From Narcine bancroftii (taxonomy: Eukaryota): a stretch of 64,000 bases of DNA. The translations under genes were made by a program, and so were the position numbers. Location of the stretch: assembly GCF_036971445.1 (NCBI RefSeq), contig NC_091477.1:4712001-4776000 (forward strand), read 5' to 3'. Positions 5,363 through 59,692 of this stretch are shown in pieces. The notes below the pieces were generated by a model. That model was not told the DNA's origin, made no database searches, and saw nothing but the letters and a program-made list of their open reading frames with translations. How positions within the stretch are numbered: the stretch's first letter is position 1; every line of letters begins with the position of its first letter.

Positions 5363-5540
5363 TCTTTCGATAACCTACCGAAAAAAGAATCAATTTCCAT
5401 TGCAGAACCAAGCTCTGAAGATAACCACAGACGACTCTGAGGAAATATTCGCTCGTAAGCATATGCTTCAAGGGATGTTGTTGCCGAGATCGTTATTGCA
5501 AGGATTTGGCAGATATAAAAAATAAACTGGCGCAGAGACA

Positions 5541-7901
5541 ATGGCGAATTCGCAGAACAACGCCTTGACGTTAAGGAGAGTGATTTTTATTTTCCTTGCT
5601 CACGCCTTGAACCTGGGATTTGGACAGATTCGCTACTCTATCCCAGAAGAAATGGAATATGGCTCTTCTGTTGGGAATATCGCTGAACATTTGGGGCTAA
5701 CTGCACGACAATTGTCAGCTCGAAAATGTCGCCTTGTCTTCGCAGAGGGAAGGCAGTATTTGGAGGTAAATTTAGGCACAGGCGTCTTATTTATCAACGA
5801 ACGAATAGATAGGGAGCAGATTTGTGCTCAAAGCTCTTCCTGTAAGCTCGCTTTCCAGATAATATTGGACAATCCCCTAGAAATGCACCGCGGTGAGGCC
5901 GAGATACTCGACATAAATGATAACTCACCCTCTTTCCCAGATAACGCCATTGTGTTGCAAATGGCCGAATCCATTGCACTAGGCTCCCGTTACCCACTAG
6001 AGAGCGCGCTCGATCCAGACGTGGGAACAAACGCGGTCACCGGGTATATGATCAGTGCAAATGGATATTTTGCATTGAAAGAGAACGTCAGAGAAGATAG
6101 TTCTAAAATAGCAGAGTTGTTGTTGGAGAAATCGTTAGACCGTGAAGATCAGACATCTTTCCAACTTGTATTAACAGCCATCGATGGCGGCAGGCCCCCG
6201 AGATCCGGGACAACTCAAATCACTATCAGGGTTCTGGACATCAACGATAACGCCCCCGTATTCGAGAATGAAGTATATCGGGCGAATCTGGAAGAAAACG
6301 CATCAGTGGGGACCTTAGTGACTAAAATCAAAGCTGTCGATTTGGATCAAGGAACGAATGCTGAATTAAAATATTCGTTCTTTAAAGTTGTCCCAGAGAC
6401 AGTCCGTGAATTGTTCAATTTGGATCCTGAAAGTGGAGAGATTAAGGTACAAGGTCAGCTGGATTATGAAGGAGTAAAGAGTTATGAACTTGATGTCCAA
6501 GCGGTGGATAACGGTTCACCAGCCATCACAGGACATTCCAAAGTACTAATCAAATTGATCGATGTAAATGATAATGCCCCGGAGATCACACTGACCTCCT
6601 TGTCTGGTAAAGTCCCCGAGGATGCTGAGCCCGGGACAGTGGTAGCTCTGATGGATGTTACGGATCGCGATTCTGGAGAAAACGGGCAAGTTCACTGTCA
6701 CATTCCACTGGGACTTCCTTTTAAAATTCAATCTTCGACAGATCACCATTATAAAATAACTACCAGCCGTTTATTGGATCGGGAAACCATCCCAGGATTT
6801 CACATACCTATCATAGCTTGGGATTCGGGATCTCCTCCCCAGTCTACAAATAAAACCATCCAGATATCGGTATCTGATGTAAACGACAACACACCACGAT
6901 TTTCGCAATCCTCCTACACTCTATATGTGATGGAGAACAACGTTCCGGGCGCGTCTATATTCGCACTTACTGCATTCGATCCTGACCTAGACCAAAACTC
7001 CTACATTTTCTATTCCATCAAAGAAAATCGGAATTCTTTGGTGCCCACTTATCTCAGCATTAACTCGATGAACGGCACTATTTACGCCCAACATTCCTTC
7101 GACTACGAGGCGCTGAAAACCTTCCAGATCCAAGTCCAAGCCCGTGACGCTGGGATGCCCCCGCTGAGCAGCAGCGCGGCGGTAAACGTGATCATCCTGG
7201 ATCAAAATGACAACGCACCGGTTATTGCCTTGCCTTCAGGCCAGAGTGGATCAACAATTGTGGAGATGGTGTCCCAGTCAGCCGGTCAAGGATACTTGGT
7301 GACCAGGGTATTGGCAACTGATGCAGATTCCGGTCAGAATGCCCGGCTCTCCTACCAAATGGTTCAAGCAACCGATCCAACTCTATTCAGCGTGGGGCGG
7401 AATTCGGGCGAAATCAGGACATCGAGAAGCATTTTGGACCTGGATGATACCTCGCAAAGTCTGGTCGTTTTAGTGAAGGACAACGGACACCCGAGCCTGT
7501 CCAGTACAGCTACAATCCACGTGTCGATTTTGGGCAACGTCAGTGAGAAAATCTCTGAAACCAGCAATTTGCACAGTACCCCTGGATACTTCTCCGACAT
7601 AAATCTGTATTTAATTGTCACATTCGGATCCACTTCGGTTATATTCCTTCTTACTATAATCTTCTTGGTTGCATTAAAATGTAAGCAGGATGTGGGCGTT
7701 GTTTACGTTGATGGATGTCGAGTTTCCTGTTGCAAGGACACGAATGGTCCGGGCTCTGCGCCAAGGGATCACTTAAACTATACTGCCACTGGTCAGACAG
7801 CACCGTTCCATGACAGTTATCATTATTCGGTTTGCTTGTCACCGGAATCATCCAAAAGTGAATTTCTTTACCTGAAACCCTGCAATGCATCCTTAACCTA
7901 A
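5541..7901 (+). CDS. Clustered-type protocadherin gene 1 (signal peptide, EC1-EC6, TM, short cytoplasmic tail), 786 aa, single exon
   Basis: QIRYSIPEE start of EC1, EC1 Cys pair (CAQSSSC), DRE/DxNDN/AxDxG cadherin motifs, TM LYLIVTFG...FLVAL, tail YSVCLSPESSKSEFLYLKP; ATG in good context (acaATGg). Confidence 0.93.
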   Translation: MANSQNNALTLRRVIFIFLAHALNLGFGQIRYSIPEEMEYGSSVGNIAEHLGLTARQLSARKCRLVFAEGRQYLEVNLGTGVLFINERIDREQICAQSSSCKLAFQIILDNPLEMHRGEAEILDINDNSPSFPDNAIVLQMAESIALGSRYPLESALDPDVGTNAVTGYMISANGYFALKENVREDSSKIAELLLEKSLDREDQTSFQLVLTAIDGGRPPRSGTTQITIRVLDINDNAPVFENEVYRANLEENASVGTLVTKIKAVDLDQGTNAELKYSFFKVVPETVRELFNLDPESGEIKVQGQLDYEGVKSYELDVQAVDNGSPAITGHSKVLIKLIDVNDNAPEITLTSLSGKVPEDAEPGTVVALMDVTDRDSGENGQVHCHIPLGLPFKIQSSTDHHYKITTSRLLDRETIPGFHIPIIAWDSGSPPQSTNKTIQISVSDVNDNTPRFSQSSYTLYVMENNVPGASIFALTAFDPDLDQNSYIFYSIKENRNSLVPTYLSINSMNGTIYAQHSFDYEALKTFQIQVQARDAGMPPLSSSAAVNVIILDQNDNAPVIALPSGQSGSTIVEMVSQSAGQGYLVTRVLATDADSGQNARLSYQMVQATDPTLFSVGRNSGEIRTSRSILDLDDTSQSLVVLVKDNGHPSLSSTATIHVSILGNVSEKISETSNLHSTPGYFSDINLYLIVTFGSTSVIFLLTIIFLVALKCKQDVGVVYVDGCRVSCCKDTNGPGSAPRDHLNYTATGQTAPFHDSYHYSVCLSPESSKSEFLYLKPCNASLT
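5994..6008 (+). promoter_or_regulatory. Putative exonic CTCF site (eCBS-like) in EC2 of gene 1
   Basis: CCACTAGAGAGCGCG compared with CTCF core CCASYAGRKGGCRS; same codon position (F/Y-P-L-E-x-A) as the mammalian Pcdh-alpha exonic CBS. Confidence 0.5.
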
Positions 7902-13298: not shown

Positions 13299-15647
13299 AT
13301 GAGCAAAATGCTATTTTTTATTTTAGTTATTTGCACATTGAACCAGGGGCTGGGTCTGATTCGCTATTCTATTCCGGAGGAAATGGAATATGGTTCTTCC
13401 ATTGGGAATATTGCTGAACATTTGGGACTAAGCATTCAAGAACTTTCAGCTCGAAAATGTCGCCTGGTATCCACTGACAAAGTACAGAATTTGGAAATAA
13501 ATTTAGAGACCGGTGTTTTATTTGTTAGCGGTCGCATAGACAGAGAACGGCTTTGCGGGCAGAGACGATCCTGTCGTCTTGCCTTTCAGATAATACTCGA
13601 CAACCCCATGGAAATGTACCGCGGTGAGGTGGATATTGTGGATATAAATGATAATTCACCCTCTTTCCCAGACAACAACATTCTTTTTCAAATTGCCGAA
13701 TCTATTGCACCAGGCTCGCGTTTCCCACTAGAGAGCGCTCTCGATCCAGACGTGGGGACGAACACAGTCACACAGTATACGATCAGCCCCAATGAGCATT
13801 TCGGTCTGAAGGTGAATGTCAGAAAGGATAATGTCAAAACTGCAGATTTGTTGTTAGAGAAACCTTTGGACCGTGAACGTCAGGCATCTTTCCATCTTTT
13901 GCTTACTGCCGTTGATGGAGGCAGACCTCCAAGATCTGGAACAACTCAAATTACCATCAACGTTCTGGATATCAATGATAATGTACCTGTGTTCGAGAAT
14001 GATGTATACACGGCGAGTCTGGAAGAAAACGCACCATTGGGTACTTTGGTGATGAAAATTAAAGCAGTCGATCTGGATCAAGGAACAAATGGTGAATTAA
14101 AATATTCTTTCGTTAATCTCGTACGTGAGTTGTTCAGTTTGGACCCTGTAACGGGAGAGATCAGAGTTCAAAAACAGCTGGACTTTGAAGTAGCCAACAA
14201 TTATGAATTTGATGTCCAAGCCGCGGACAACGGTTCACCAGCGACCACAGGACATTCCAAAGTGCTGATCGAATTAATTGATGTTAATGATAATGCCCCC
14301 GATATAACAGTGACCTCCCTGACTGGCAAAGTCCCCGAGGATGCTGCGCCCGGGACTGTGGTAGCTCTGATGGATATTACGGATCTCGATTCTGGGGAAA
14401 ATGGACGGGTTCACTGTCATATACCACTGGAATTACCCTTTAAAATTCAATCGTCCCTGAATAACCATTATAAATTAGTCATAAGCCGTCTGTTGGATCG
14501 AGAGAAGGCCCCAAGTTATAATATACCTCTCATGGCTTGGGACTCCGGATCTCCTCCAATGTCAACAAACAAAACAATCCAGATATCTGTGTCTGATATA
14601 AACGACAACGCACCAAGATTTTCGCAATCCTCCTACACTCTATATGTGATGGAGAACAACGTTCCGGGCGCGTCTATATTCGCACTTACTGCATTGGATC
14701 CTGACCTGGACCAAAACTCCTACATTTTCTATTCCATTACAGAAAATCGGAATTCTTTGCTGCCCACTTATCTCAGCATTAACTCGATGAACGGCACTAT
14801 TTACGCCCAACATTCCTTCGACTACGAGGCGCTGAAAACCTTCCAGATCCAAGTCCAAGCCCGTGACGCTGGGATGCCCCCGCTGAGCAGCAGCGCGGCG
14901 GTAAACGTGATCATCCTGGATCAAAATGATAACGCACCGGTTATTGTTTCACCTTCAGACCAGAGTGGATCAACAATTGTGGAGAAGGTGTCCCAGTCAG
15001 CCGGCCAAGGATACTTGGTGACCAAGGTATTGGCAACTGATGCAGATTCCGGTCAGAACGCCCGGCTCTCCTACCAAATGGTTCAAGCAACCGATCCAAC
15101 TCTATTCAGCGTGGGGCGGAATTCGGGCGAAATCAGGACATCGAGAAGCATTTTGGACCTGGATGATACCTCGCAAAGTCTGGTCGTTTTAGTGAAGGAC
15201 AACGGACACCCGAGCCTGTCCAGTACAGCTACAATCCACGTGTCGATTTTGGGCAACGTCAGCGAGAAAATCTCTGAAACCAGCAATTTGCACAGTACCC
15301 CTGGATACTTCTCCGACATAAATCTGTATTTAATTGTCACATTCGGATCCACTTCGGTTATATTCCTTCTTACTATAATCTTCTTGGTTGCATTAAAATG
15401 TAAGCAGGATGTGGGCGTTGTTTACGTTGATGGATGTCGAGTTCCCTGTTGCAAGCGAAGGAAACCAAAGGACACCAATGGTCGGGGCTCTGCGCCAAGG
15501 GATCACTTAAACTATACTGCCACTGGTCAGACAGCACCGTTCCATGACAGTTATCATTATTCGGTTTGCTTGTCATCGGAATCATCCAAAAGTGAATTTC
15601 TTTACCTGAAACCACACAATCCATCGTTGGATCAAGCACACCGATAA
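13299..15647 (+). CDS. Clustered-type protocadherin gene 2, single exon; probable start ATG 13299 (alternative 13308)
   Basis: Full signal peptide-EC1-6-TM-tail. The ORF-track start at 13272 is GTG; the first in-frame ATG is 13299. Has a 4-aa deletion in EC3 relative to gene 3. Confidence 0.92.
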   Translation: MSKMLFFILVICTLNQGLGLIRYSIPEEMEYGSSIGNIAEHLGLSIQELSARKCRLVSTDKVQNLEINLETGVLFVSGRIDRERLCGQRRSCRLAFQIILDNPMEMYRGEVDIVDINDNSPSFPDNNILFQIAESIAPGSRFPLESALDPDVGTNTVTQYTISPNEHFGLKVNVRKDNVKTADLLLEKPLDRERQASFHLLLTAVDGGRPPRSGTTQITINVLDINDNVPVFENDVYTASLEENAPLGTLVMKIKAVDLDQGTNGELKYSFVNLVRELFSLDPVTGEIRVQKQLDFEVANNYEFDVQAADNGSPATTGHSKVLIELIDVNDNAPDITVTSLTGKVPEDAAPGTVVALMDITDLDSGENGRVHCHIPLELPFKIQSSLNNHYKLVISRLLDREKAPSYNIPLMAWDSGSPPMSTNKTIQISVSDINDNAPRFSQSSYTLYVMENNVPGASIFALTALDPDLDQNSYIFYSITENRNSLLPTYLSINSMNGTIYAQHSFDYEALKTFQIQVQARDAGMPPLSSSAAVNVIILDQNDNAPVIVSPSDQSGSTIVEKVSQSAGQGYLVTKVLATDADSGQNARLSYQMVQATDPTLFSVGRNSGEIRTSRSILDLDDTSQSLVVLVKDNGHPSLSSTATIHVSILGNVSEKISETSNLHSTPGYFSDINLYLIVTFGSTSVIFLLTIIFLVALKCKQDVGVVYVDGCRVPCCKRRKPKDTNGRGSAPRDHLNYTATGQTAPFHDSYHYSVCLSSESSKSEFLYLKPHNPSLDQAHR
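13725..13739 (+). promoter_or_regulatory. Putative exonic CTCF site in gene 2
   Basis: CCACTAGAGAGCGCT. Confidence 0.55.
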
Positions 15648-16729
15648 ATCTCAACGTTGTGGGAAACCCAAAGGTTTTAAAAAAATACCCATATATATTT
15701 AAATTGGTTTGAGAGCCCATTGCCTGTGAAATATCTCCCATTATTTGATCCGCAGCAAAAGAAAATTGTGTTAAACCGGCTTTGTTATTAAGTAAAGGAA
15801 ATAGGTAGAAATAATTTGCTGTACTCTTTAATCATCTCGACTACCGATGGACAAAAAGCCGAAATTGTATCAGGTTTTAGCCCTGTTTCTAAAACCACCC
15901 TTTGGATATATTATAATGCAACTGTCATTCAACACATTCACACTGTTTATATATAGGCATCATGTTGTGGCATGCTCTCTATGCCATTTTAATCTTTCAA
16001 ATATATGCTGTTTTACGCACCATTGAAATATGTTCTAAACTAGTTACCCGCTGTAGCGAGATATCAATGCTAAACGCGTGCATTCTTTTTAATGACCTAT
16101 TTTGCAGCATTAATTTTAGTGATTTCCTTGATCAATTTTACACCAATCCCCCTTTCAGATTCCCAGCTTTCAAGCGTTACCACAAAACACAACTTCGTGA
16201 ATTATATACCTTCTAGTTCACTTTGCAATCGTATGTAAATTCCACGTTTATTAACGTATTCTACCTTCGTCACGTAATTTCCTGAACATAATACGTTAAT
16301 CTGGAGACATGAGCTTTCTTTGCCAATACTAATTTTTAAAAATTTATAAAATATATGACGAATTCCTTGGTTTAAATTTCTATCATAGCAAATAATGAAT
16401 TGTTGTTGGCGCAACATTAATGCCCTTCCAAATACAATTTTCCATCATTGACAAGTTTGCATTCTCACTGCAATCATTTCTCTCCGTTTCCTGATGGAAA
16501 TTATTCATTTCTTATCTATTCCACTGAAAATCAATTTAAACGCCATGCTTTAATATCCGACATAATTCCATCTAGAGTATCATATTGAAATATTGTTGAC
16601 GATACTAAGAAAGTCGCTTCATCCACTTTATCCATGCAAAAACGTCCTGTTACCTTTCAGTTGGCTAAGGATTGAATATTTTCTTTTAAAATCCACAAGA
16701 ACTATGCTTTTCTTTGCTTTATCTATTTT

Positions 16730-16853
16730 GTATACTCACATGCCGCCTGAAGTAATCCCTTAGTAACCTCAGAGCAGCTATACCACAGGTCTCTGGGGCT
16801 AGTAAAAATAACATCAGGTGGTATTTGAGTGGAAAAAAGCTTGAGAACCACTG
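16730..16853. mobile_element. hAT MITE single unit (left end degraded)
   Basis: ctcacatgccgcctgaagtaatccc...ggtggtatttgagtgg...ttgagaaccactg. Confidence 0.65.
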
Positions 16854-17291
16854 ATTACATCATTCGGCAAAAATGACCTTTATACCATTGACCTTTTTAA
16901 TACCTAACTATAAATAAAAATGAAAATATCTGCCTGTTAATCCGGAGTCCGAAGCCATAATAGGTATATTATAACAAACAATATTAGCTTATCACGTGTG
17001 AACATTATTTTTGACATTACCTCTCTGCATTATTCCAACTACGTGGTGCATTTTACTCGGATCCAAGATTTTACCGTCTTGGATTTTGATTATTTTATTA
17101 GTGATTAACTTTCCAAATTCCTTAGATTATTTCTTATTCTAAGAGATTGTATAGTTTCCACACCACCCTGAATATAAATGACGTGAAACAACTGTCAATC
17201 ATTTTTAGGACTGGTATCAATGCAGGTGAACTTGTTACGCTTTCATTTTACAAAGAAAACATGAGCATTCACGTTTATATTCTCCCTATGA

Positions 17292-17450
17292 CATTTGTTC
17301 TCAACCTTCCCCCCCTCCCCTCACATACCACCTCACGTAATCCCCTACTAACCACGGAGAACATATGGCATAGGATGCGTCGATGCTCTGTGGTTAAGAA
17401 GGGATTCCTTCAGGTGGTATTTGAGTGCAAATAAAGGTTGAGAACCACTG
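17292..17450. mobile_element. hAT MITE single unit
   Basis: gttctcaacc...ggttgagaaccactg inverted termini with a palindromic core. Confidence 0.7.
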
Positions 17451-18857
17451 CTGTATAGTTCCTTTATTACTTTCATTTATTTTGCAGAAGTTTCTCAATT
17501 TAATCTTCCCACGCCCCCCCCCCCCCACACGTCTGTGGATTTCATTTAAAAACAAAACAACGCTGGAAATAAAACTCAGGTGCTGAGCCAGAATCCAAAG
17601 ATAGGAAAACGATTTAATGTTTATCATTCCGGATCTGAATCTGTATCACTTTATCTTTTTGAGGATAGTGTTGTGATTTTCAATAATTCGTTGCTGTTTT
17701 ATTTAAGATTTCTGGCATCTTCCATTTTTGTTATAGTCACAGAATCAACAGTGTGTTTCCTCACTACATTTCAATTGACACCCCCCTCCACGGCATGGCG
17801 ATTCCTCGCCGTGAAAACCTATTTTCCACGGTAAATCCTTCCTTTTAACTCTTATCATTCACACGTTAAAGTGGTCTCGAGATTGCTTGAACACAAATAC
17901 CGATACAGCTACAAAAAAATCACTTTAGCAAAGCATGAGAACTCCGTTACAGCAAGAAGCACAGCCATAACCAGATAGTTTCACCCAAACAGCGTCTGCC
18001 TCGTGGTTTTCGAATCATATATTTATTAGGCAGAACCCCTACGTTTCTAGAACATTCGAACAGACTGGTCCATATTTCTTAGAATTCCACTGGGATGCGT
18101 TAATCAGGGTAATTTCCCTTACCCAATACTTTATTATTCCTTTACCAGATAAGGGTGTCGTTATCAGCTCCAGCTGATAACAGGAAAGAAAGGAACGCAA
18201 CTAGCTTCTTTCTTCCAGCCAACATTTTAAAACTTACATTCTCACACACATTTAACTATTTCAAGCAGCTGCAGTGAAAAACAACTTATCTTCCCTGTTT
18301 TAATTCTTAAAATGCTGTAACGAATTATTGTTTTATTCTTTCTTAGTCATCGCTCGCATCCTGGTCTTAGGACCATGCGCGCGCACACACACATGGGTCT
18401 ATCTTGAGGGAAGTGGGCGTTGGGGCACGGACAACGGAAACGGGAATGCACTCCATCTCCCAATTACTACGAAGCCCATACTAGTGGGTACTGGAAGCAC
18501 TGAACTTAGAGCGAGAGCAACAAGTTTACGCAATCTTTGAAGTCATTTCATCTATCATAATAACACGCTTTTCTGTTTTAATTCCAAATGAATGACTGTT
18601 TTCCTGTTATGCAGAAAGTTCTATTATTATTGCTGGCACCGACCTCCCCTCCCCCATTTGTTTTGAACATTTCACCGCTTTTATTGTTTTAAACGTTATT
18701 TGGAATCAGAAATACTCTGTCCTATCCTGTAAAGGAGATTGGTATAATTGGAGTAGGATCTCAGATTTTTATATCGTATTTGTGTGGAAATTCATGCGGT
18801 GCTGGCGGATGAATGTACATGTTGGACACAAATGAACGTAGTCTCCCATGGCTAAAA

Positions 18858-19006
18858 GAGTGGTACTCAATCTTTCTTTCCTACTCACATACCACCTTAA
18901 GTAATCCCTTACAAACCACAAAGCACTTATCTACCATAAGTGCTCTGTAGCTAGTAAGGGATTACTTAAGGCGGCATGTAAGTGGAAAAAAGGTTGAAAA
19001 CCATTG
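18858..19006. mobile_element. hAT MITE single unit
   Basis: gagtggtactcaa...ttgaaaaccattg termini; ccaccttaagtaatccctt / aagggattacttaaggcgg stem. Confidence 0.75.
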
Positions 19007-19343
19007 GGTGAAACGGAATGTCAACGACGTTTTCTTAAAAAGAACGGATGTATTGGAAATACGAGTTATACCTTTGACTAATAAATACATACCTATATGA
19101 TACCTTTGTAGACCGAGATATCTCAGCTTCTACAGAAAATATTGTTAATATGATAAACAAATGACGTGGAATATATTGCAACCTATTGTCTGGAAAATTA
19201 CAGATCAATTTGATTCAAAGATCGATCAAGTGGAATGCAATAAGTTTGAATAATTTGCCAAATCAATGTTGAAAATAAAAATATACACGTTTAAATAAAT
19301 GTTTCCATATTTTAACTAAACAATGCGATTCCAAGAACAGTCT

Positions 19344-19420
19344 AGCTTTAAGAACTGCATCGTCTAACCCCGACAACCAATAGGAACCCACTTTCGGCGA
19401 GAGATCCATTGTCCCTCCCC
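19344..19420 (+). promoter_or_regulatory. Pcdh promoter module 3 with ~23-bp deletion over the CSE
   Basis: GCTTTAAGA to CCAAT is 32 bp here and 54-55 bp in the other four modules; CCAAT and GATCCATTG are intact. Confidence 0.75.
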
Positions 19421-19617
19421 ATTGCAGACCGAAAATGTGTTTCCATTTACATTGCAGAACCAAGCTCCGACGCACACAATCTTTAGAAATTTTGCATGCA
19501 GGTATCTCGGTCAAGGGATTTTATTTCCGAGGCACCTCTTGAAATATTTTGGGAGGAAAAACAAATCTGGCGCAGAGAATAGCGAATTCGAAGAGTCACA
19601 ACGTTTTGAAAATTACG

Positions 19618-21969
19618 ATGCTGTTTTATATTTTCCTTGTTTGCGCACTGAACCAGGGGCTGGGTCTAATTCGCTATTCTATTCCAGAGGAATTGGAATA
19701 TGGCTCTTCTGTTGGGAATATTGCTGAACATTTGGGACTGAGCGTTCGCGAATTATCAGCTCGAAAATGTCGCCTGGTCTCCGCTGATGAAAGACAGCAT
19801 TTGGAGGTAAATTTAGAAACTGGAGTATTGTTTGTAAGCAATCGAATAGACAGAGAAGAGCTTTGCATTCAGAACCCTTCCTGCACACTTGCTTTCCGGA
19901 TAATATTAGAAATGCCGCTCGAAATGTACCGCGGTGAGGTGGATATTGTGGATATAAATGATAATTCACCCTCTTTCCCAGACAACAACATTCTTTTTCA
20001 AATTGCCGAATCTATTGCACCAGGCTCGCGTTTCCCACTAGAGAGCGCTCTCGATCCAGACGTGGGGACGAACACAGTCACACAATATACGATCAGCCCC
20101 AATGAGCATTTCGGTCTGAAGGTGAATGTCAGAAAGGATAATGTCAAAACTGCAGATTTGTTGTTAGAGAAACCTTTGGACCGTGAACGTCAGGCATCTT
20201 TCCATCTTTTGCTTACTGCCGTTGATGGAGGCAGACCTCCAAGATCTGGAACAACTCAAATTACCATCAACGTTCTGGATATCAATGATAATGTACCTGT
20301 GTTCGAGAATGATGTATACACGGCGAGTCTGGAAGAAAACGCACCATTGGGTACTTTGGTGATGAAAATTAAAGCAGTCGATCTGGATCAAGGAACAAAT
20401 GGTGAATTAAAATATTCTTTCGCTAATCTCGTCCCAGGGAGCGTACGTCAGTTGTTCAGTTTGGACCCTGTAACGGGAGAGATCAGAGTTCAAAAACAGC
20501 TGGACTTTGAAGTAGCCAACAATTATGAATTTGATGTCCAAGCCGCGGACAACGGTTCACCAGCGATCACAGGACATTCCAAAGTGCTGATCGAATTGAC
20601 TGATGTTAATGATAATGCCCCCGATATAACAGTGACCTCCCTGACTGGCAAGGTCCCCGAGGATGCTGCACCCGGGACATTGGTTGCTCTTATCGATGTT
20701 AAGGATCGCGATTCTGGAGAAAATGGAAAAATCCAATGCCATATTCCATTTGGAATTCCCTTCAACATTCTATCTTCCTTGACTAACCATTATAAGGTAA
20801 CGACCAGCAGTTTATTGGATCGGGAAACGATTCCACAATACAATATAACAATTGTAGCCTGGGACTCTGGGGCTCCTTCACTATCAACAAATAAAACCAT
20901 CCAGATATCGGTATCTGATGTAAACGACAACACACCACGATTTTCGCAATCCTCCTACACTCTATATGTGATGGAGAACAACGTTCCGGGCGCGTCTATA
21001 TTCGCACTTACTGCATTCGATCCTGACCTAGACCAAAACTCCTACATTTTCTATTCTATCAAAGAAAATCGGAATTCTTTGTTGCCCACTTATCTCAGCA
21101 TTAACTCGATGAACGGCACCATTTACGCCCAACACTCCTTCGACTACGAGGCGCTGAAAACCTTCCAGATCCAAGTCCAAGCCCGTGACGCTGGGATGCC
21201 CCCGCTGAGCAGCAGCGCGGCGGTAAACGTGATCATCCTGGATCAAAATGACAACGCACCGGTTATTGCCTCGCCTTCAGGCCAGAGTGGATCAACAATT
21301 GTGGAGATGGTGTCCCAGTCAGCCGGTCAAGGATACTTGGTGACCAGGGTATTGGCAACTGATGCAGATTCCGGTCAGAATGCCCGGCTCTCCTACCAAA
21401 TGGTTCAAGCAACCGATCCAACTCTATTCAGCGTGGGGCGGAATTCGGGCGAAATCAGGACATCGAGAAGCATTTTGGATCTGGATGATACCTCGCAAAG
21501 TCTGGTCGTTTTAGTGAAGGACAACGGACACCCGAGCCTGTCCAGTACAGCTACAATCCACGTGTCGATTTTGGGCAACGTCAGTGAGAAAATCTCTGAA
21601 ACCAGCAATTTGCACAGTACCCCTGGATACTTCTCCGACATAAATCTGTATTTAATTGTCACATTCGGATCCACTTCGGTTATATTCCTTCTTACTATAA
21701 TCTTCTTGGTTGCATTAAAATGTAAGCAGGATGTGGGCATTGTATACGTTGATGGATGTCGACTTCCCTGTTGCAAGCGAAGGAAACCAAAGGACACCAA
21801 TGGTCGGGGCTCTGCGCCAAGGGATCAGTTGGACTACAGCACAGATTGTCAGACAGCACAGTTCCATGAGAGGTATCATTACTCGGTTTGCTTGTCACCG
21901 GAATCATCCAAGAGCGAATTTCTTTTCTTGAAACCCTGCAATCCATCCTTGTCTGAAGGGCATTGTTAA
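19618..21969 (+). CDS. Clustered-type protocadherin gene 3, single exon; probable start ATG 19618
   Basis: Full domain set. The ORF-track start at 19549 is TTG; the first in-frame ATG directly precedes the hydrophobic signal peptide MLFYIFLVCAL. Confidence 0.92.
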   Translation: MLFYIFLVCALNQGLGLIRYSIPEELEYGSSVGNIAEHLGLSVRELSARKCRLVSADERQHLEVNLETGVLFVSNRIDREELCIQNPSCTLAFRIILEMPLEMYRGEVDIVDINDNSPSFPDNNILFQIAESIAPGSRFPLESALDPDVGTNTVTQYTISPNEHFGLKVNVRKDNVKTADLLLEKPLDRERQASFHLLLTAVDGGRPPRSGTTQITINVLDINDNVPVFENDVYTASLEENAPLGTLVMKIKAVDLDQGTNGELKYSFANLVPGSVRQLFSLDPVTGEIRVQKQLDFEVANNYEFDVQAADNGSPAITGHSKVLIELTDVNDNAPDITVTSLTGKVPEDAAPGTLVALIDVKDRDSGENGKIQCHIPFGIPFNILSSLTNHYKVTTSSLLDRETIPQYNITIVAWDSGAPSLSTNKTIQISVSDVNDNTPRFSQSSYTLYVMENNVPGASIFALTAFDPDLDQNSYIFYSIKENRNSLLPTYLSINSMNGTIYAQHSFDYEALKTFQIQVQARDAGMPPLSSSAAVNVIILDQNDNAPVIASPSGQSGSTIVEMVSQSAGQGYLVTRVLATDADSGQNARLSYQMVQATDPTLFSVGRNSGEIRTSRSILDLDDTSQSLVVLVKDNGHPSLSSTATIHVSILGNVSEKISETSNLHSTPGYFSDINLYLIVTFGSTSVIFLLTIIFLVALKCKQDVGIVYVDGCRLPCCKRRKPKDTNGRGSAPRDQLDYSTDCQTAQFHERYHYSVCLSPESSKSEFLFLKPCNPSLSEGHC
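20035..20049 (+). promoter_or_regulatory. Putative exonic CTCF site in gene 3
   Basis: CCACTAGAGAGCGCT. Confidence 0.55.
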
Positions 21970-30360: not shown

Positions 30361-30539
30361 ATTGAACGAAAGCAGAATCACACGGACGAGGCTCGGCATA
30401 TTAAATTGTTTTTTGCGACCACTTATTCAAACAGAAAGAACAAGACGATAATGGCTTCAGCGCGAGGTATCGACATTGGTTCCTCGCAAAGAGAGCCGAA
30501 TTAAATTGGACCATCTGAAAATAAACCGGTCGCACAATA

Positions 30540-32912
<2,373 letters not shown>

Positions 32913-43569: not shown

Positions 43570-45950
43570 AATTTTTTTAAAAAACTTTATGTATTCGTTC
43601 AAAATACAAATAGTAAATAACATAAACAACATTGAACCAGAAACATGAACGTTATATTTTATATGAAAAATAAAAGTAAAGAAAAAATGGAAAAAATCGA
43701 AACCCCCCCTCCCCTTCAGCCAACTCTCCTAAAGAGAGTCATAAAGAAAGGAAAAAATTTTAAGGAAAATTAAACATACATATTAAGATCTGATCAACAT
43801 AAATCAAAATGTAAATATTCTAAATATAACAATCACTTACTAATAAAATTTCACGCGAAAAATATATAATTTATTCCATTATTAAACAATATTTCATCTC
43901 ATTATATCATCTATTAATATCAATCATATTCGTATTTTTCCACGTACTAACAATACATTTTTTCGCTAAAAATAATGCTAAATATACAAAAGTAAGTTGA
44001 AATTTATCTAATTCCAAACCTTTCAATGGTTATAAACTGCCCAATAAAGATGCTATCGGGTCTAAAGGTATTTTATCCTTATACAGGTATTCTAAAAACA
44101 ATTGAATTTTCCTCCAAAAAGATTTTATATATATACACATGACCATACAGCATGAAAAAAAATTTCCAACAGAATTACCACATCTAAAACACGAATTTAA
44201 TTAACGAAAAAAAATACTTTTTTAGTTTTTCAGATGTTAAATATAATTAATATAAAAAAAATTAATCATTGCATAGCGTAAATGTATTAGCCTAATTACA
44301 GTATCATAACAAATATCTAATCAATCATCTTTGGAAAAAATAAAACCAATATCCACTTCCCATTTCCCTTTGGATTTATCCCAACCTTTTTATGCATACT
44401 ATCCTATAATATTTAATACATAAATGAAATAGAACCCTTCTCTGGTACCTTCATAAGAAAAGTCTCAAATTTAGTCATTTCATGTAAAATTGTACCACTA
44501 CCAAACACACGTTTTACCAAAGATCAAATTTAATAATAAAGAAACAAAGAGTTCTTATCAATACCATAGCTGTCCCTCATCTTCACACTTAATCGGATTG
44601 TTTAAACCTCAAACATTAAAAGTAGGAAACCTCAACTTTAACATATCTACTAATATTACTAAAGACAAATAATATCTTTATATGAAAACTGAAATCATCA
44701 TATATAGGCCGTCCAATAGGAGAAAAAAATCACAAATTAAAAGCTAGATAAAATGAAAATAATAAAAAGAAGAATAAAATTAACAACCCCCCACCCAAAA
44801 AAAAATTATCAAAAGGTAGTAATCCCTGAACAAAATTTGGGTGTGGATAACCCACCAGTGGCTGATGACTAATAGAACCTAGAACTAATCTCTTCCTCCC
44901 CAGCCAAACATAAAGTAATCTCAAAATATCATAATAACATAAAAAATAAAATAAGAATAAGAAGATTCTTCTATTCATCCAAGAGTTTCCAAACTCGGAG
45001 ATCCCATTTCAAAAGAAGCTGGACTCTTTCCATTTCTGTTTTCCCCATTTCTGCCATTTCTTCCAATGGTGGACTACGTGTTTGTCCTCTTATATCTGGC
45101 AATGAATCAGCAAAAATCATTGCTTCACGATCATCCTCAAAAAACCGAGATTGATGGTCTCCATGAAACACCTTCAACACTGCCGGATAGCAAAAAGTAG
45201 ACTTATAACCTTTACACCACAAAACTTCTTTAACTGGATTAAATTGACGTCGACGTTGAATTACCTCTTGACTCAAATCAGGATAAAAAAACTCTGCTAT
45301 TCTGAATCAATAACAGAGTTTTTCGTTTTCTCGCATTTTGCACTGCCAGTCGAAGTATTGCTTCTCTATCCAAATAATTCAAACATCGAATTATTACAGG
45401 TCTCAGTGGTTGACCAGATAAAGTTGTTCTTCTTGAAGCTCTATGAGCTCTTTCCAGTACCAAGCTTCCAGAAAAAAATTCTTGCCCTCGTACTTGTGGG
45501 ATCCAGTCTATAAAAAAACGAAGAGGATCTTGTCCTTCCATACCTTCTGGCAAACCAACAATTTTCACATTATTCCTTCTACTTTGATTCTCCAAATAGT
45601 CTATTTTCCTCTCTAACTCCTTCTCACATTCTCGCAATTCTATAAGGGATTTTTCAACCTTCAACCCTTTTTCTGTATTAGAAGTCACTTGCTGTTTACA
45701 TTCCAAAAAGAAGACTGAAAGTTTAAAAAATCTTCACAAGATGCTTCCACACGTGCTTTAACTGTATTCAATTCTGAACTTATTCTTTGAGCCATCTCAT
45801 TCATTATAGGCTGGATGACAGCATTTAACGGCTTACATTGTAATTCAGAAAAGCTCAGCCCTGCTTTCTCTAACGTAGTGGCAGAACCAGGTAAATGCAG
45901 CTCCTGCTGCAACTCAACAAAATGCATTTTGATCATCTGTTAATTTTGAA
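43570..45950 (-). mobile_element. L1-clade LINE, internally deleted (ORF1 plus ORF2 C-terminus)
   Basis: ORF1 motifs LENQSRRNNVKIVGLPE, LERAHR, RPVIIR; minus-strand CFRC...FFHAVWSC Cys-rich tail at ~44130-44190; no room for EN/RT. Confidence 0.8.
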
Positions 45951-50259: not shown

Positions 50260-52381
50260 AACCCATCTCGCTAACAATCCCAATTAAACAGATTTTTTGA
50301 TCCAAAGAAAATTTTATTTTCAAAATATTTTGTAAATAATCTCTTACTCTATAGCAAAAACACTAACGTTATCACAAGTCCATAATGAGTGTAAAAACGC
50401 ATCTCTCAGATCATTTCACCGAAGGCACAGATCTGAAGCACTCTGCTTATATCTTTTCAAACGTTTTGTGGTCAGGAATATTTGATGTTGAAAATTATCA
50501 ATTATCAGTCCATACCTAACATTTACTAATTTTGCCATACTACATCTACAAATATTCATCCCATGATTATTTCCAAATTTAACCACCAAATCCTTCTCCC
50601 ATTTAAGTCGTGATTTATGCAATCCAATTATATGCATTTTCTGCTGCATTAATGTATACATTTCAGAAATAAAATCCTTCTTCCCTTCATCCCGGAACAA
50701 CACTTCATTTTAATTCTTTAGGTGAAAGCAAATGTCTCCCGAAATAATCAAACAACATTGATTTAATTTGTTTATAACAAAAAAACGTGTGAGTAGGGAT
50801 TTGCTATTTTTCCTTCAACCTTTCAAATGGTACAAAATGACTCAATTCAAAGCAATCATTTACCGTTGTAATTCCTTTCTGATTCCAGATTTTTAAGAAG
50901 GTTATTGTCAATCATAAAAGATTATTTATTCTGAAACAAAGGTGTATATCTAGAAAATTCATCTTGATTAACAATATTTTTTACATACTCTTCCCAAATA
51001 CTTATCAATGAGATTAAATAGGTGCTTTCTAACCGCTAATTAATTTACTATTCCATTTATAGATGAAATAATCTCTTCTATTGTCTCCAATTCTCTTCAA
51101 TTTTGCATCTAGCCAAGTTACAGGACTATCTAAGTCAAGCATTCTATTCATAATTTTAATTGAGCAGCTTTATAATAATTTTAAAAATTCAGAAGTTGCA
51201 AACCACCTAATACGTATTTCCATGTTAATCTATGCATAGAAACCATTGCTAATTTTCCGTTCCATTGAAATTTCCTAACCATTTCATTGAAATCCCTAAA
51301 ATAACTTCTTGGTAAATTACAAGGTATATTTTGAAAAAAATACTGGTCGAGGAAATATATTCATTTTTATACCGTTCACACTACCCACTAATGTTAACGG
51401 TAAATCCTTCCATTTATTTAAATCTTCTTTTATTACAGACATTAATAATAAATAATTTAATTCAAATAATTGATTTTTATCTTTATTCACTTTAATAACT
51501 AAATACTTAGTGTGATTTGGCCATTTAAAGTCTCCCCCTCCTTTACAACCAGAATAATCAGCCTCAGACAATGGCATAAGTTCACTTTTATTCCAATTCA
51601 CTTTATAACCAGATAATTCCCCATATTGTAATAACTTTTGGGTCTGTTAAGTGTACTAATATATTTTATGCAAATACACTAATCTTATAATCCATCACTC
51701 CTGATTTAATCCTCTTTATATAACTTTCCTGTCTTATTAATTGCGTTAAAGTTTCAAACACCAATGCAAACAATGAAGGTGATAAAGAGCACCCCTGACT
51801 CGTAGATCTTTCAAATTAAAAGATTCAGATAAGACTCATAACTCTAGCATTGGTTTATTTATATATTGCTTTAATCCAATTTATAAACATTGATGAAAAC
51901 CGAAATTTCTCCAATACATTAAATTAAAAAAGAAAACATTCCACCTTATCAAATGCTTTTTTTCAGCAGCCATCGATAACACTACTTGAACTTGGATTGC
52001 TCCCGAGAAATATTTATTAAACTAATTTAACTACATTATCAGCAAATATCCACCTTTAATAAAACACGTCTGGACAATATGAATCAACTTTGGTAAATAC
52101 TGTGCCAGTCTATTTGCCAAACTCTTAGTCAAAATTTTATAGTCAACATTCAATAATGAAATTGGACTACAAGCGCGAGGATGCAAAAGGTCTATACATG
52201 ATCTTTTTAAAGGATGACTGTAATAATTGCTGGTGAAAATGATTCCAGAACGGATCATGTATCTGAAACGTGTTGTAAAACTTGACCAAACACTGGAAGC
52301 ACTAAATGTTGGAATTTATTTTAAAATTCCAGAGTAAACACATCTTCTCCTGGAGATTTACCATTTGATGTTGAATTCAAA
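50260..52381 (-). mobile_element. Degenerate L1/Tx1 ORF2 (RT to C-terminus), truncated at the duplication junction
   Basis: GKSPGEDVFTLEF, PISLLNVDYKILTKSLANRL, EKAFD, QGCSLSPSLFAL, WKDLPLTLVG. Confidence 0.85.
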
Positions 52382-52483
52382 GCTGCATGCGCGACGGAAG
52401 GCTTGTTTCTTCTCTGGACAGGACGGCTTTGTAAGGTGAGCCTGGTGGGCAGCTCGCTTCTTTGCCAGCAGCTCCTGGATTTC
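52382..52483 (-). mobile_element. Internal RTE-LINE fragment filling the breakpoint
   Basis: About 59% GC island; the minus strand reads EIQELLAKKRAAHQAHLTKPSCPEKKQAFRRACS without stops, recognised from memory as the EN-RT linker of RTE-clade ORFs. Confidence 0.7.
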
Positions 52484-54337
52484 AGTCTAAAAACGCAGCT
52501 CAACGATGACCGTGTTATAAGTGCAGAGTTGGTGTTAGAGAAATCTTTGGACCGAGAGCGGCAATCATCGTTTCATTTGTTGCTTACGGCCACTGACGGT
52601 GGGATTCCTCAAAGGTCCGGTACGGCTCAGATTCTCATTACAATACTGGACATCAATGATAATCCACCTATATTCGAGCATGATGTCTACAAAGGCAGCC
52701 TCAGTGAAAACGCACTGCCAGGTACCTCAGTGTTGAAAGTTAATGCAAACGATTTGGACGAGGGGGTGAATGCTGAGATAACATATTCTTTCAGTGATCG
52801 AACCATGAGACAAATACGTGATATATTCATCATAGACCCAGATACAGGAGTGATTCGGCTCGAAGGACCGCTGGATTTTGAAGAAGCAAATACCTATTCG
52901 CTCGATGTTCAAGCTGTGGACCACGGTTTCCCTGCGATTACAGGATACTCAAAAGTGCTGATCAAGGTAATTGATGTGAACGACAACGCCCCCGATATAA
53001 CATTGACATCAACATTTAACAAAATCACGGAAGATGCTCCTCCAGGAACATTCATAACCTTGATCAATGTTATCGATCGCGATTCTGGAGAAAATGGTCG
53101 AGTTCGTTGTGAAATACCGAAGAACATCCCTTTCACGCTGCAAACATCATCTGACCATTATAAACTAATTTCTAGTGAAGCGTTGGACCGTGAGGCGATC
53201 TCTGAGTACAAGATTCCTGTTTCAGCCTGGGACCAGGGATCTCCTTCACTGTCAACAAATAAAACCATCCATGTCACAATTTCCGATGTAAATGATAACG
53301 CCCCACAGTTTACGGAGCCTTCCTACAACATTTATGTGATGGAAAACAACAGCCCTGGTGTTTCTATATTCGCGGTTACAGCGTCCGATCCGGATTTGGA
53401 CCAGAATTCGTATGTTTCATACTCTCTTCTGGCCAATCATATGGGAGACTTGCCAGTGTCCAGTTATATCAGCATTAACTCGATGAACGGTACCATTTAC
53501 GCGCTGCGCTCATTCGACTACGAGAAACTAAAAACCTTCCAGATCCAGGTTCAAGTCCGTGATGCTGGAGTGCCTCCGCTGAGTAGTAGCGCTGGGGTAA
53601 ATGTGATCATCCTGGATCAAAATGACAACGCGCCGGTAATTGTTTCACCTTCAGCATCAGGTGGATCAGAAGCAGTGGAGATTGTGCCCCATTTAGCGAG
53701 TCAAGGCTACCTGGTGACCAGGGTAATGGCTACAGATGCAGATTCCGGGCAGAACGCACGGCTGTCATATCAGATGCTCAAATCGTCTGATTCTAGCTTG
53801 TTCAACGTTGGACGAAATTCCGGAGAAATCAGAACTGCTCGCAATATTTTGCAGTCAGATAGTAGCTCACAGACTTTGGTGATATTGGTGAAGGACAACG
53901 GGCAGCCAAGCCTCTGGAACACGGTTACAATTCACATTACAGCTTTGGAGAACATCACCGAAAAAATAAGTGAAAGTAGTAAATTAGTGAAGAATCCGGA
54001 ATACGTTTCCAATCGAAATCTTTATTTGATCGTCATTTTCGGTTGCACGTCCATTGCCTTTCTGTTGATCATCGTTCTGTTGATTGGCATCAAGTGTAAG
54101 CAGGACAGAACTGTCATCCAGGAGTATAATTACCCCAGTTATTGTTACAAAGGTGGAGATTCGCGCGTCACGTTGAACCGGGGACCTGCAATGGAGGAAA
54201 CTTTGCGCTATCCCGGGACTGGCCAGGTAGTCCGCGTGCCAGAATCTAATCAATATTCTGTCTGCCTGTCCCCGGAATCAGCGAAAAGTGATTTTCTCTT
54301 CTTGAAGCCATGCGACGTTACCACCTCTCAAGCCTAA
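52481..54337 (+). pseudogene. 5'-truncated protocadherin (gene 6), duplicate of gene 5; lacks promoter, signal peptide, EC1 and the first part of EC2; remaining frame open
   Basis: Homology to gene 5 starts abruptly at ttcagtctaaaaacgcag (equivalent to 41484); ORF-track start is TTG within the filler; no promoter module upstream. Confidence 0.85.
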
Positions 54338-58937: not shown

Positions 58938-59692
58938 TCCTTTGGCTTGGCTTCGCGGACGAAGATTTATGGAGGGGGTAAAAGTCCACGTCAGCTGCAG
59001 GCTCGTTTGTGGCTGACAAGTCCAATGCGGGACAGGCAGACACGGTTGCAGCGGCTGCAGGGGAAAATTGGTTGGGTGGGGTTGGGGTTGGGTGTTGGGT
59101 TTTTCCTCCTTTGCCTTTTGTCAGTGAGGTGGGCTCTGCGGTCTTCTTTCAAGGAGGTTGCTGCCCGCCAAACTGTGAGGCGCCAAGATGCACGGTTTGA
59201 GGCGATATCAGCCCACTGGCGGTGGTCAATGTGGCAGGCACCAAGAGATTTCTTTAGGCAGTCCTTGTACCTTTTCTTTGGTGCACCTCTGTCACGGTGG
59301 CCAGTGGAGAGCTCGCCATATAACACGATCTTGGGAAGGTGATGGTCCTCCATTCTGGAGATGTGACCCATCCAGCGCAGCTGGATCTTCAGCAGCATGG
59401 ACTCGATGCTGTCGACCTCTGCCATCTCGAGTACTTTGACGTTAAGGATGAAAGCGCTCCAATGGATGTTGAGGATGGAGCGGAGACAACGCTAGTGGAA
59501 GCGTTCTAGGAGCCTTAGGTGATGCCGGTAGAGGACCCATGATTCGGAGCCGAACAGGAGTGTGGGTATGACAACGGCTCTGTATACGCTTATCTTTGTG
59601 AGGTTTTTCAGTTGGTTGTTTTTCCAGACTCTTTTGTGTAGTATTCCAAAGGCGCTATTTGCCTTGGCGAGTCTGTTGTCTATCTCATTGTC
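58938..59692 (-). mobile_element. Young 5'-truncated RTE-clade LINE (BovB/AviRTE-like)
   Basis: Near-intact ORF C-terminus (EIDNRLAKANSAFG...GSESW...QLRWMGHISRM...CSRC...HKRAC), one stop, 3' end gcgaagccaagccaaag; absent from copy 1 at ~48302. Confidence 0.92.

Follow-up and report, generated by a model that had tools for sequence, protein, structure and literature searches.

The window analysed here, a 64,000-nucleotide stretch of the 3.33-Gb Narcine bancroftii genome (contig C21, positions 4712001-4776000), contains six clustered-protocadherin exons: four intact open reading frames (ORFs), one broken and one truncated (Table 1). A Pfam search for EC1 returned 56 matches, 45 of which lie on one strand of C21 at 4.38-5.31 Mb, and three constant-exon-like (Cadherin_tail) matches accompany this same-strand variable-exon array. 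The one-ORF architecture and the arrangement in a tandem array on one strand, with constant exons downstream, identify the genes as clustered protocadherin (Pcdh) variable exons. Among named homologues, those closest to gene 2 come from sawfish, skates and stingrays (70-75%) and identify the locus as batoid. With elephant shark epsilon14, gene 3 has 57% identity and a short C-terminal end in common. The array is located after the constant-exon match at 4.398 Mb. Judged by similarity and position, the locus is likely an epsilon-type subcluster. Thirty-six solved structures are related at E <= 1e-60, and by analogy with the family the encoded proteins would form a strictly homophilic antiparallel EC1-4 dimer. 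Residue numbers count from the start of the mature gene 3 protein, whose alignment to mouse alpha7 and gammaC4 is free of gaps.

Several other features of the array were observed. The region 40824-63839, together with cluster exons L003-L006, is a young tandem expansion of ~11-kb units, with flanks 92% alike and exons 96-99% identical at third positions. Within it, EC1 is missing from the copy at 52325-54337 and the 5' end from L004, and exon L006 is broken. Exons L009 and L010 are whole-exon duplicates, and their 99% identity at third positions suggests that they are probably near-redundant recognition tags. At the matching place in the promoter, gene 2 carries CGCT (13155), which would match the core motif of Pcdh promoters, and gene 3 carries CGCA (19471). 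Two minus-strand ORFs (45278-45733 and 58991-59491) resemble LINE fragments.

Table 1. Features of the protocadherin locus, in window coordinates; codons follow gene 3 numbering.
Feature	Position	Strand	Description	Basis
Gene 1	5538..7901	+	Intact variable exon; older paralogue, serves as outgroup; lacks the EC2-EC3 tract	ORF, Pfam
Gene 2	13299..15647	+	Intact variable exon: signal peptide, EC1-EC6, TM, cytoplasmic part	ORF; Pfam Cadherin_2, 5 Cadherin, Cadherin_C_2
Gene 3	19618..21969	+	Intact variable exon, same class as gene 2	ORF, Pfam, tree
Gene 4	30525..32900	+	Broken class-B exon	Split ORFs; best blastx match a skate class-B protein, 67%
Shared tract, gene 2 copy	13611..14356	+	EC1 strand G, EC2, EC3, EC4 strand A; codons 86-338	
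Shared tract, gene 3 copy	19921..20678	+		Alignment; one 719-base read contig at about twice the flanking depth
Youngest part of tract, gene 2	13611..14112	+	A single difference over 502 bases; 19921-20422 in gene 3	
12-bp indel	20431..20442	+	Encodes 4 residues of the EC3 Phe-X10-Phe-type loop; missing from gene 2 (after 14120), present in genes 1 and 3	
Unconverted EC1, codons 1-85	13356..13610 (gene 2); 19666-19920 (gene 3)	+	54/255 bases differ	
Unconverted EC4, codons 339-406	14357..14561 (gene 2); 20679-20883 (gene 3)	+	61/205 bases differ	
Second homogenised block	14562..15505 (gene 2); ~20884-21827 (gene 3); from ~6843 (gene 1)	+	EC4 strand G to cytoplasmic part	

Genes 2 and 3 Share an EC2-EC3 Tract

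The first-pass annotation had described, by eye, a near-identical block in genes 2 and 3 that begins at EMYRGEV and ends in PEDAAPGT, with one substitution in its first ~500 bp and divergent EC1 and EC4 on either side. Alignment confirmed each of these points, except that the gene 2 copy had been extended two bases too far, to 14358. The two copies differ by 8 substitutions in 746 aligned bases and by one 12-bp in-frame indel. The flanking parts of EC1 and EC4 are only 79% and 70% identical, respectively (Fisher p 2e-42 for their differences versus the tract). The 3' end of the tract lies one codon before EC4 strand B. Between genes 2 and 3, synonymous divergence (pS) was 0.36 in EC1, 0.013 in EC2, 0.014 in EC3 and 0.45 in EC4, while that of gene 1 was 0.42-0.60 in each of EC1-EC4. 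The dS values in EC4 and EC2 (0.69 versus 0.013) give a ratio of ~50. Bounded near-identity that includes synonymous sites, set inside old paralogues, marks a gene conversion tract, and recent non-allelic gene conversion very probably produced it. A double unequal crossover would leave the same pattern as non-reciprocal transfer.

The description of a clean single block did not hold, and both the indel and a second block had gone unmentioned. Differences are unevenly distributed, with one in the 502 bases of the 5' part and seven in the 244 bases of the 3' part (p 0.002), indicating that the 5' part is younger and the 3' part older or re-diverged. The EC2 protein sequence is identical in genes 2 and 3. 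The EC3 sequences differ at positions 253, 262, 301 and 312, and gene 2 is missing four residues between F252 and F264, in a Phe-X10-Phe loop described as isoform-specific in the cited part of PMC5001838. Three of the five protein changes fall in this 11-codon loop (p 8e-4, a post hoc statistic), although an unconverted patch around the indel may account for the clustering. At 14245, gene 2 of a second sample has T, as in genes 3 and 1, and this gene 2/3 difference may be a polymorphism.

The second block is common to genes 1, 2 and 3 and comprises the last EC4 strand (from codon 407), EC5, EC6 and the TM segment, with pS of 0.01-0.11 in EC5-6. It starts at the F-G loop point of EC4, which is equivalent to the 5' boundary of the tract in EC1. 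Additionally, a cytoplasmic patch at 15506-15612 was converted in genes 1 and 2 and not in gene 3 (19 gene-3-only sites, one gene-2-only site). GC3 is not raised in the tract (0.38-0.42 in EC2-3; 0.55-0.62 in EC5-6), so conversion in the gene 2/3 pair looks rare.

The near-identity of EC5-6 would also be compatible with a recent duplication, after which EC1 and EC4 were replaced or changed fast under adaptive selection. However, the flanks of genes 2 and 3 do not align beyond the promoter, as against 92% at the true recent duplicates (40.8 and 52.3 kb), EC1 and EC4 differ at synonymous sites, and none of 39 exons is a closer donor. We regard this alternative as highly improbable. As to the direction of transfer, the EC2-3 clade of genes 2 and 3 is placed among batoids with a support of 55, too low to point to the donor.

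Both Tract Copies Exist in the DNA

Near-identical repeats are error-prone in assembly, and the sample behind read sets X1, X3 and X4 is possibly the source of this one, so that the tract could in principle be a chimera or a collapse. Read contigs without mismatch (X1, X3) stop at 13640 and at 19950, in both cases 30 bases inside the tract, which is how contigs should break when two unique sequences run into one repeat. A single 719-base contig covers the tract, with a depth of 10.9 versus 6.4 and 5.2 beside it in X1 and of 8.8 versus 4.2 and 3.9 in X4; these values come from one sample, and contig depth is not a copy number. Furthermore, the 3' junction of gene 3 (20622-20916) is crossed by a contig without mismatch. 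The 5' junction of gene 2 is crossed in a second sample (X5, guessed to be RNA), which carries the 12-bp deletion and whose coverage excludes its gene 3 tract. X6, which bears another organism label and has a depth below 3, contains short pieces of both forms and was given no weight. The contig breaks and depth fit two copies, and the read contigs place both in the DNA. The earlier preference for conversion over an assembly chimera is thus upheld by contigs and depth; a collapse or chimera is unlikely, and we assign it next to no weight.

EC2-EC3 Sharing Is Rare in the Ray Cluster

We retrieved 39 further cluster exons and one from another contig. The comparison covered 39 of the 45 cluster exons (ORF >= 660 residues), leaving out six broken ones. 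Long mosaic tracts were found only among genes 1-3, and EC2-EC3 is shared only by genes 2 and 3, in one of 741 exon pairs, most of which are too divergent to reveal old tracts. All other close pairs are duplicates of whole exons. In the scan, short segments of EC1 and EC5 reached nominal p values of 0.0015-0.006, which were lost after 741 tests, and the matches of w6 and L004 were products of truncated ORFs. The modular breakpoints at EC1/2 and EC3/4 that had been proposed cluster-wide are therefore not seen in this genome.

In orthologous class-A pairs of five other batoid species, EC2 identity is 0.66-0.79, EC2-3 is not shared, and EC4-6 is homogenised in three of the five. These pairs fit the textbook pattern, in which EC2-EC3 is spared. 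Homogenisation confined to EC4/5-EC6 and beyond describes neither genes 2 and 3 nor the shark genes described below.

Shark Classes B and C Show a Similar Mosaic

Domain trees of 52 elasmobranch proteins conflict. EC1 groups classes B and C, which were named after this first tree, as clades across species, while EC2-3 groups by lineage, with the two classes merging in each of five shark lineages. The EC4-core tree was poorly supported. A skate gene falls within class B, so the classes are older than the shark-ray split, which dates to ~250 million years ago or more. No intact class-B or class-C gene was found among the ray cluster exons compared, and this ray may therefore have lost the pair kept by sharks.

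AU tests on 13 rows (five B, five C, three outgroup) rejected the class B and class C clades for EC2-3 (p 2e-61 and 2e-6) and three same-species pairs for EC1 (p 2e-8, 3e-5 and 1e-55). UFBoot support was 99-100 for the grouping by class in EC1 and 84-99 for that by lineage in EC2-3. Site patterns agreed in 14 of 14 quartets, which share lineages: class sites versus lineage sites numbered 10-20 versus 0-1 in EC1 1-85, 0-4 versus 9-23 in EC2+EC3, and 1-6 versus 0-1 in EC4 318-345. In four pairs, the mean identity of same-species B/C pairs versus orthologues was 0.57 versus 0.76 in EC1, 0.93 versus 0.82 in EC2, 0.86 versus 0.78 in EC3, and 0.66 versus 0.80 in EC4 318-345. Comparison of six B and six C genes gave 15 fixed differences over 636 positions. 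Eleven lie in EC1 1-85 and four in EC4 (322, 323, 325 and 340), with none in EC2-EC3 or EC5-EC6; of these six pairs, one combines two species belonging to the same order and another combines two assemblies, and fused models supplied two of the B genes. Database gene models P0121, P0126, P0129 and P0131 (~1600 residues) each fuse two adjacent variable exons and are probably annotation errors. The movement of an EC2-EC3 block between paralogues that keep EC1 and part of EC4 distinct, suggested earlier for genes 2 and 3, thus recurs in sharks.

In a set of 99 proteins forming 348 within-species pairs, EC2-3 is shared far more than EC1 in 19 pairs and the opposite occurs in none; these are protein data from database gene models, without synonymous sites, and the database hides pairs above 90% identity. 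This asymmetry would fit a combinatorial generator, as the first-pass annotation had proposed, in which EC2:EC3 and EC1:EC4 are interchangeable and conversion among many paralogues makes new codes. In Carcharodon, the EC2-3 of one class-B gene matches the class-C gene (identity 0.94, 0.90) no less closely than it matches its class-B sister (0.88, 0.92), and cells aggregate when they express chimeras whose EC1 and EC4 derive from other paralogues (PMC5001838). However, all 19 pairs are of the one B/C class pair, and only genes 2 and 3 share in the ray. Copying also overwrites one EC2-EC3 variant, so that EC2-EC3 diversity falls. Homogenisation gives the recipient a new combination without adding an isoform, so we give code generation little credence and treat it as a minor interpretation.

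The 5' boundary, located only to 86-115 in sharks, resembles that of the ray. Across all classes, identity over residues 86-100 is 80-100%, so a common boundary needs no selection. After this control, we dropped the same breakpoint in sharks and ray as independent evidence. EC1, at 52-65% identity, may now be too divergent to convert.

The Unshared Segments Carry Predicted EC1:EC4 Contact Positions

Published EC1:EC4 contacts, in the passages available, include positions 36, 38, 322 and 324, which when swapped interchange the binding of alpha7 and alpha8 (PMC5106212), 78 with 344 (bioRxiv 10.1101/2021.07.22.453400), 87 and 342 (PMC10925414), and the EC1 F-G loop (here 83-85) with the loop after EC4 strand A (PMC5001838). 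Another published contact, gammaB7 E41 with K338 and R340, would map to ~41-42, 344 and 346 through a gammaB2 alignment. This mapping rests on main-text positions, and supplementary interface tables could change it.

The fixed shark differences include 322 (K versus L/F), 83-85 and 40-45, and position 78 separates B from C in 10 of 14 quartets. Fixed positions 12, 15, 35, 70 and 340 are among several without a match to a published contact. Genes 2 and 3 agree at 36, 38, 87, 322, 324, 342, 344 and 375, and differ at 42 (K/E), 78 (Q/R), 346 (T/K) and 82-85, all outside the tract. The view that the transfer left both interfaces untouched needs correction: the tract takes in EC4 strand A as well as EC1 strand G, where M87 corresponds to a residue of the EC1:EC4 core. 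Since gene 1 has the same residues at contact positions 87, 322 and 324, the EC1:EC4 faces were probably little altered by the transfer. From these positions, there is a somewhat better than even chance that genes 2 and 3 bind distinctly. A predicted complex of two gene 3 EC1-4 copies had a score of 0.00 and no contacts, which weighs neither way.

Discussion

The reading that we favour, and hold to be probable, is a ~750-base conversion between old neighbours, with selection sparing matched EC1/EC4 patches. Conversion would have copied EC2-EC3 with an adjoining strand on each side between neighbouring paralogues, starting and stopping in conserved strand-G/calcium-linker blocks. A tract that altered one EC1:EC4 face without its partner would weaken self-binding or blur identity, and would be removed. 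EC2 and EC3 would travel together and remain self-compatible. Genes 2 and 3 would therefore remain different tags mainly through EC1:EC4 (42, 78, 346 and the F-G loop), together with the re-diverging EC3 loop. Conversion would thereby repeatedly homogenise EC2-EC3 while selection guards the matched EC1:EC4 faces. That an EC2-EC3 cassette has passed between paralogues since before the shark-ray split, with two matched EC1/EC4 faces kept by selection, is a more tentative extension, which we rate at somewhat less than even.

Selection on EC1:EC4 is, on the sequence comparison, the rather likely cause of the pattern. The strongest argument for it is the short EC4 island that persists between homogenised blocks. 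Neutral, homology-driven conversion would explain the same data by tract ends in conserved blocks, an EC1 that passed a divergence barrier early, and a gene 2/3 tract that arose by chance and was tolerated through redundancy. The conserved block at 86-100 and the same type of boundary at EC4 codon 407 fit this explanation, as do the single case among the 741 pairs of this genome and the broken exons and recent whole-exon duplicates, which suggest loose constraint in the cluster. The conserved block, the single case and the batoid class-A pairs without sharing also count against selection, as does the passage of the gene 2/3 tract through EC4 strand A, part of the island protected in sharks. 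Yet this crossing demonstrates that a 750-base tract can traverse strand A, and the shark island nevertheless persists: its four fixed differences survive between homogenised blocks in six of six pairs, and it includes position 322, tested for specificity in alpha7/alpha8. We therefore consider neutral conversion unlikely, though it is the most serious competitor to conversion under selection.

Regional gene conversion is established in the clustered protocadherins of teleosts, mammals, Xenopus and anole (PMC1852091, PMC4978886, PMC2764143). As there, neighbouring paralogues are involved here and tracts are sharply bounded, and the EC5-EC6-TM block of genes 1-3 is that pattern. In the cited passages on bony vertebrates, EC2-EC3 is described either as escaping conversion or as the most diversified region (PMC4978886, PMC1852091, PMC4828864, PMC7811963); it seldom or never converts, and EC1-3 is used for trees. 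Here EC2-EC3 converts, in genes 2 and 3 together with EC4 strand A, while EC1 codons 1-85 and, in sharks, EC4 strand A escape, and the ray and sharks thus reverse the rule that EC2-EC3 escapes conversion. The elephant shark epsilon subcluster, to which epsilon14 belongs, is likewise chondrichthyan; the cluster is cited in passages of PMC2764143 and PMC4978886 for low conversion, with a dS ratio of 1.8-2.3 across ectodomains, far from the EC4:EC2 ratio in genes 2 and 3. Reports on conversion in elasmobranch Pcdhs were not found in the literature searched, whose scope excluded most subscription papers.

A similar case, from the portion of the report cited, is the ATP1A1 duplicates of Leptodactylus, trans-specific paralogues homogenised except for a small co-adapted residue set under selection (bioRxiv 10.1101/2020.08.04.234435). 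The held residues there were experimentally tested, whereas those here form a predicted two-domain adhesion interface. In mouse alpha7/alpha8 and beta6/beta8, few interface residues, some of them EC1:EC4, give strict homophilic specificity (PMC5106212; bioRxiv 10.1101/2021.07.22.453400). These close pairs also differ in EC2:EC3, and natural EC2-3 transfer is absent from the passages cited. An excerpt of bioRxiv 10.1101/493106 gives EC2/EC3 as the more discriminating interface in mouse. Accounts of EC1:EC4 disagree in the passages at hand, one assigning it only affinity (PMC5001838) and the other also specificity (PMC5106212).

Paralogues with a common EC2-EC3 and distinct EC1:EC4 faces offer a direct test between these two roles, and the comparison names the residues to swap: 40-45, 78, 83-85 and 322-325. 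The findings undercut the use of EC1-3 or EC2-3 trees as conversion-free for Pcdhs, as well as the view of cartilaginous-fish clusters as little converting. If the selection reading is true, evolution ran a domain-swap experiment that marks co-adapted EC1:EC4 residues, of which genes 2 and 3 would be a fresh snapshot at the DNA level. The recognition identity of these genes would then lie in the interface often thought less important, with the recognition code of this first elasmobranch Pcdh subfamily in EC1:EC4, not EC2:EC3.
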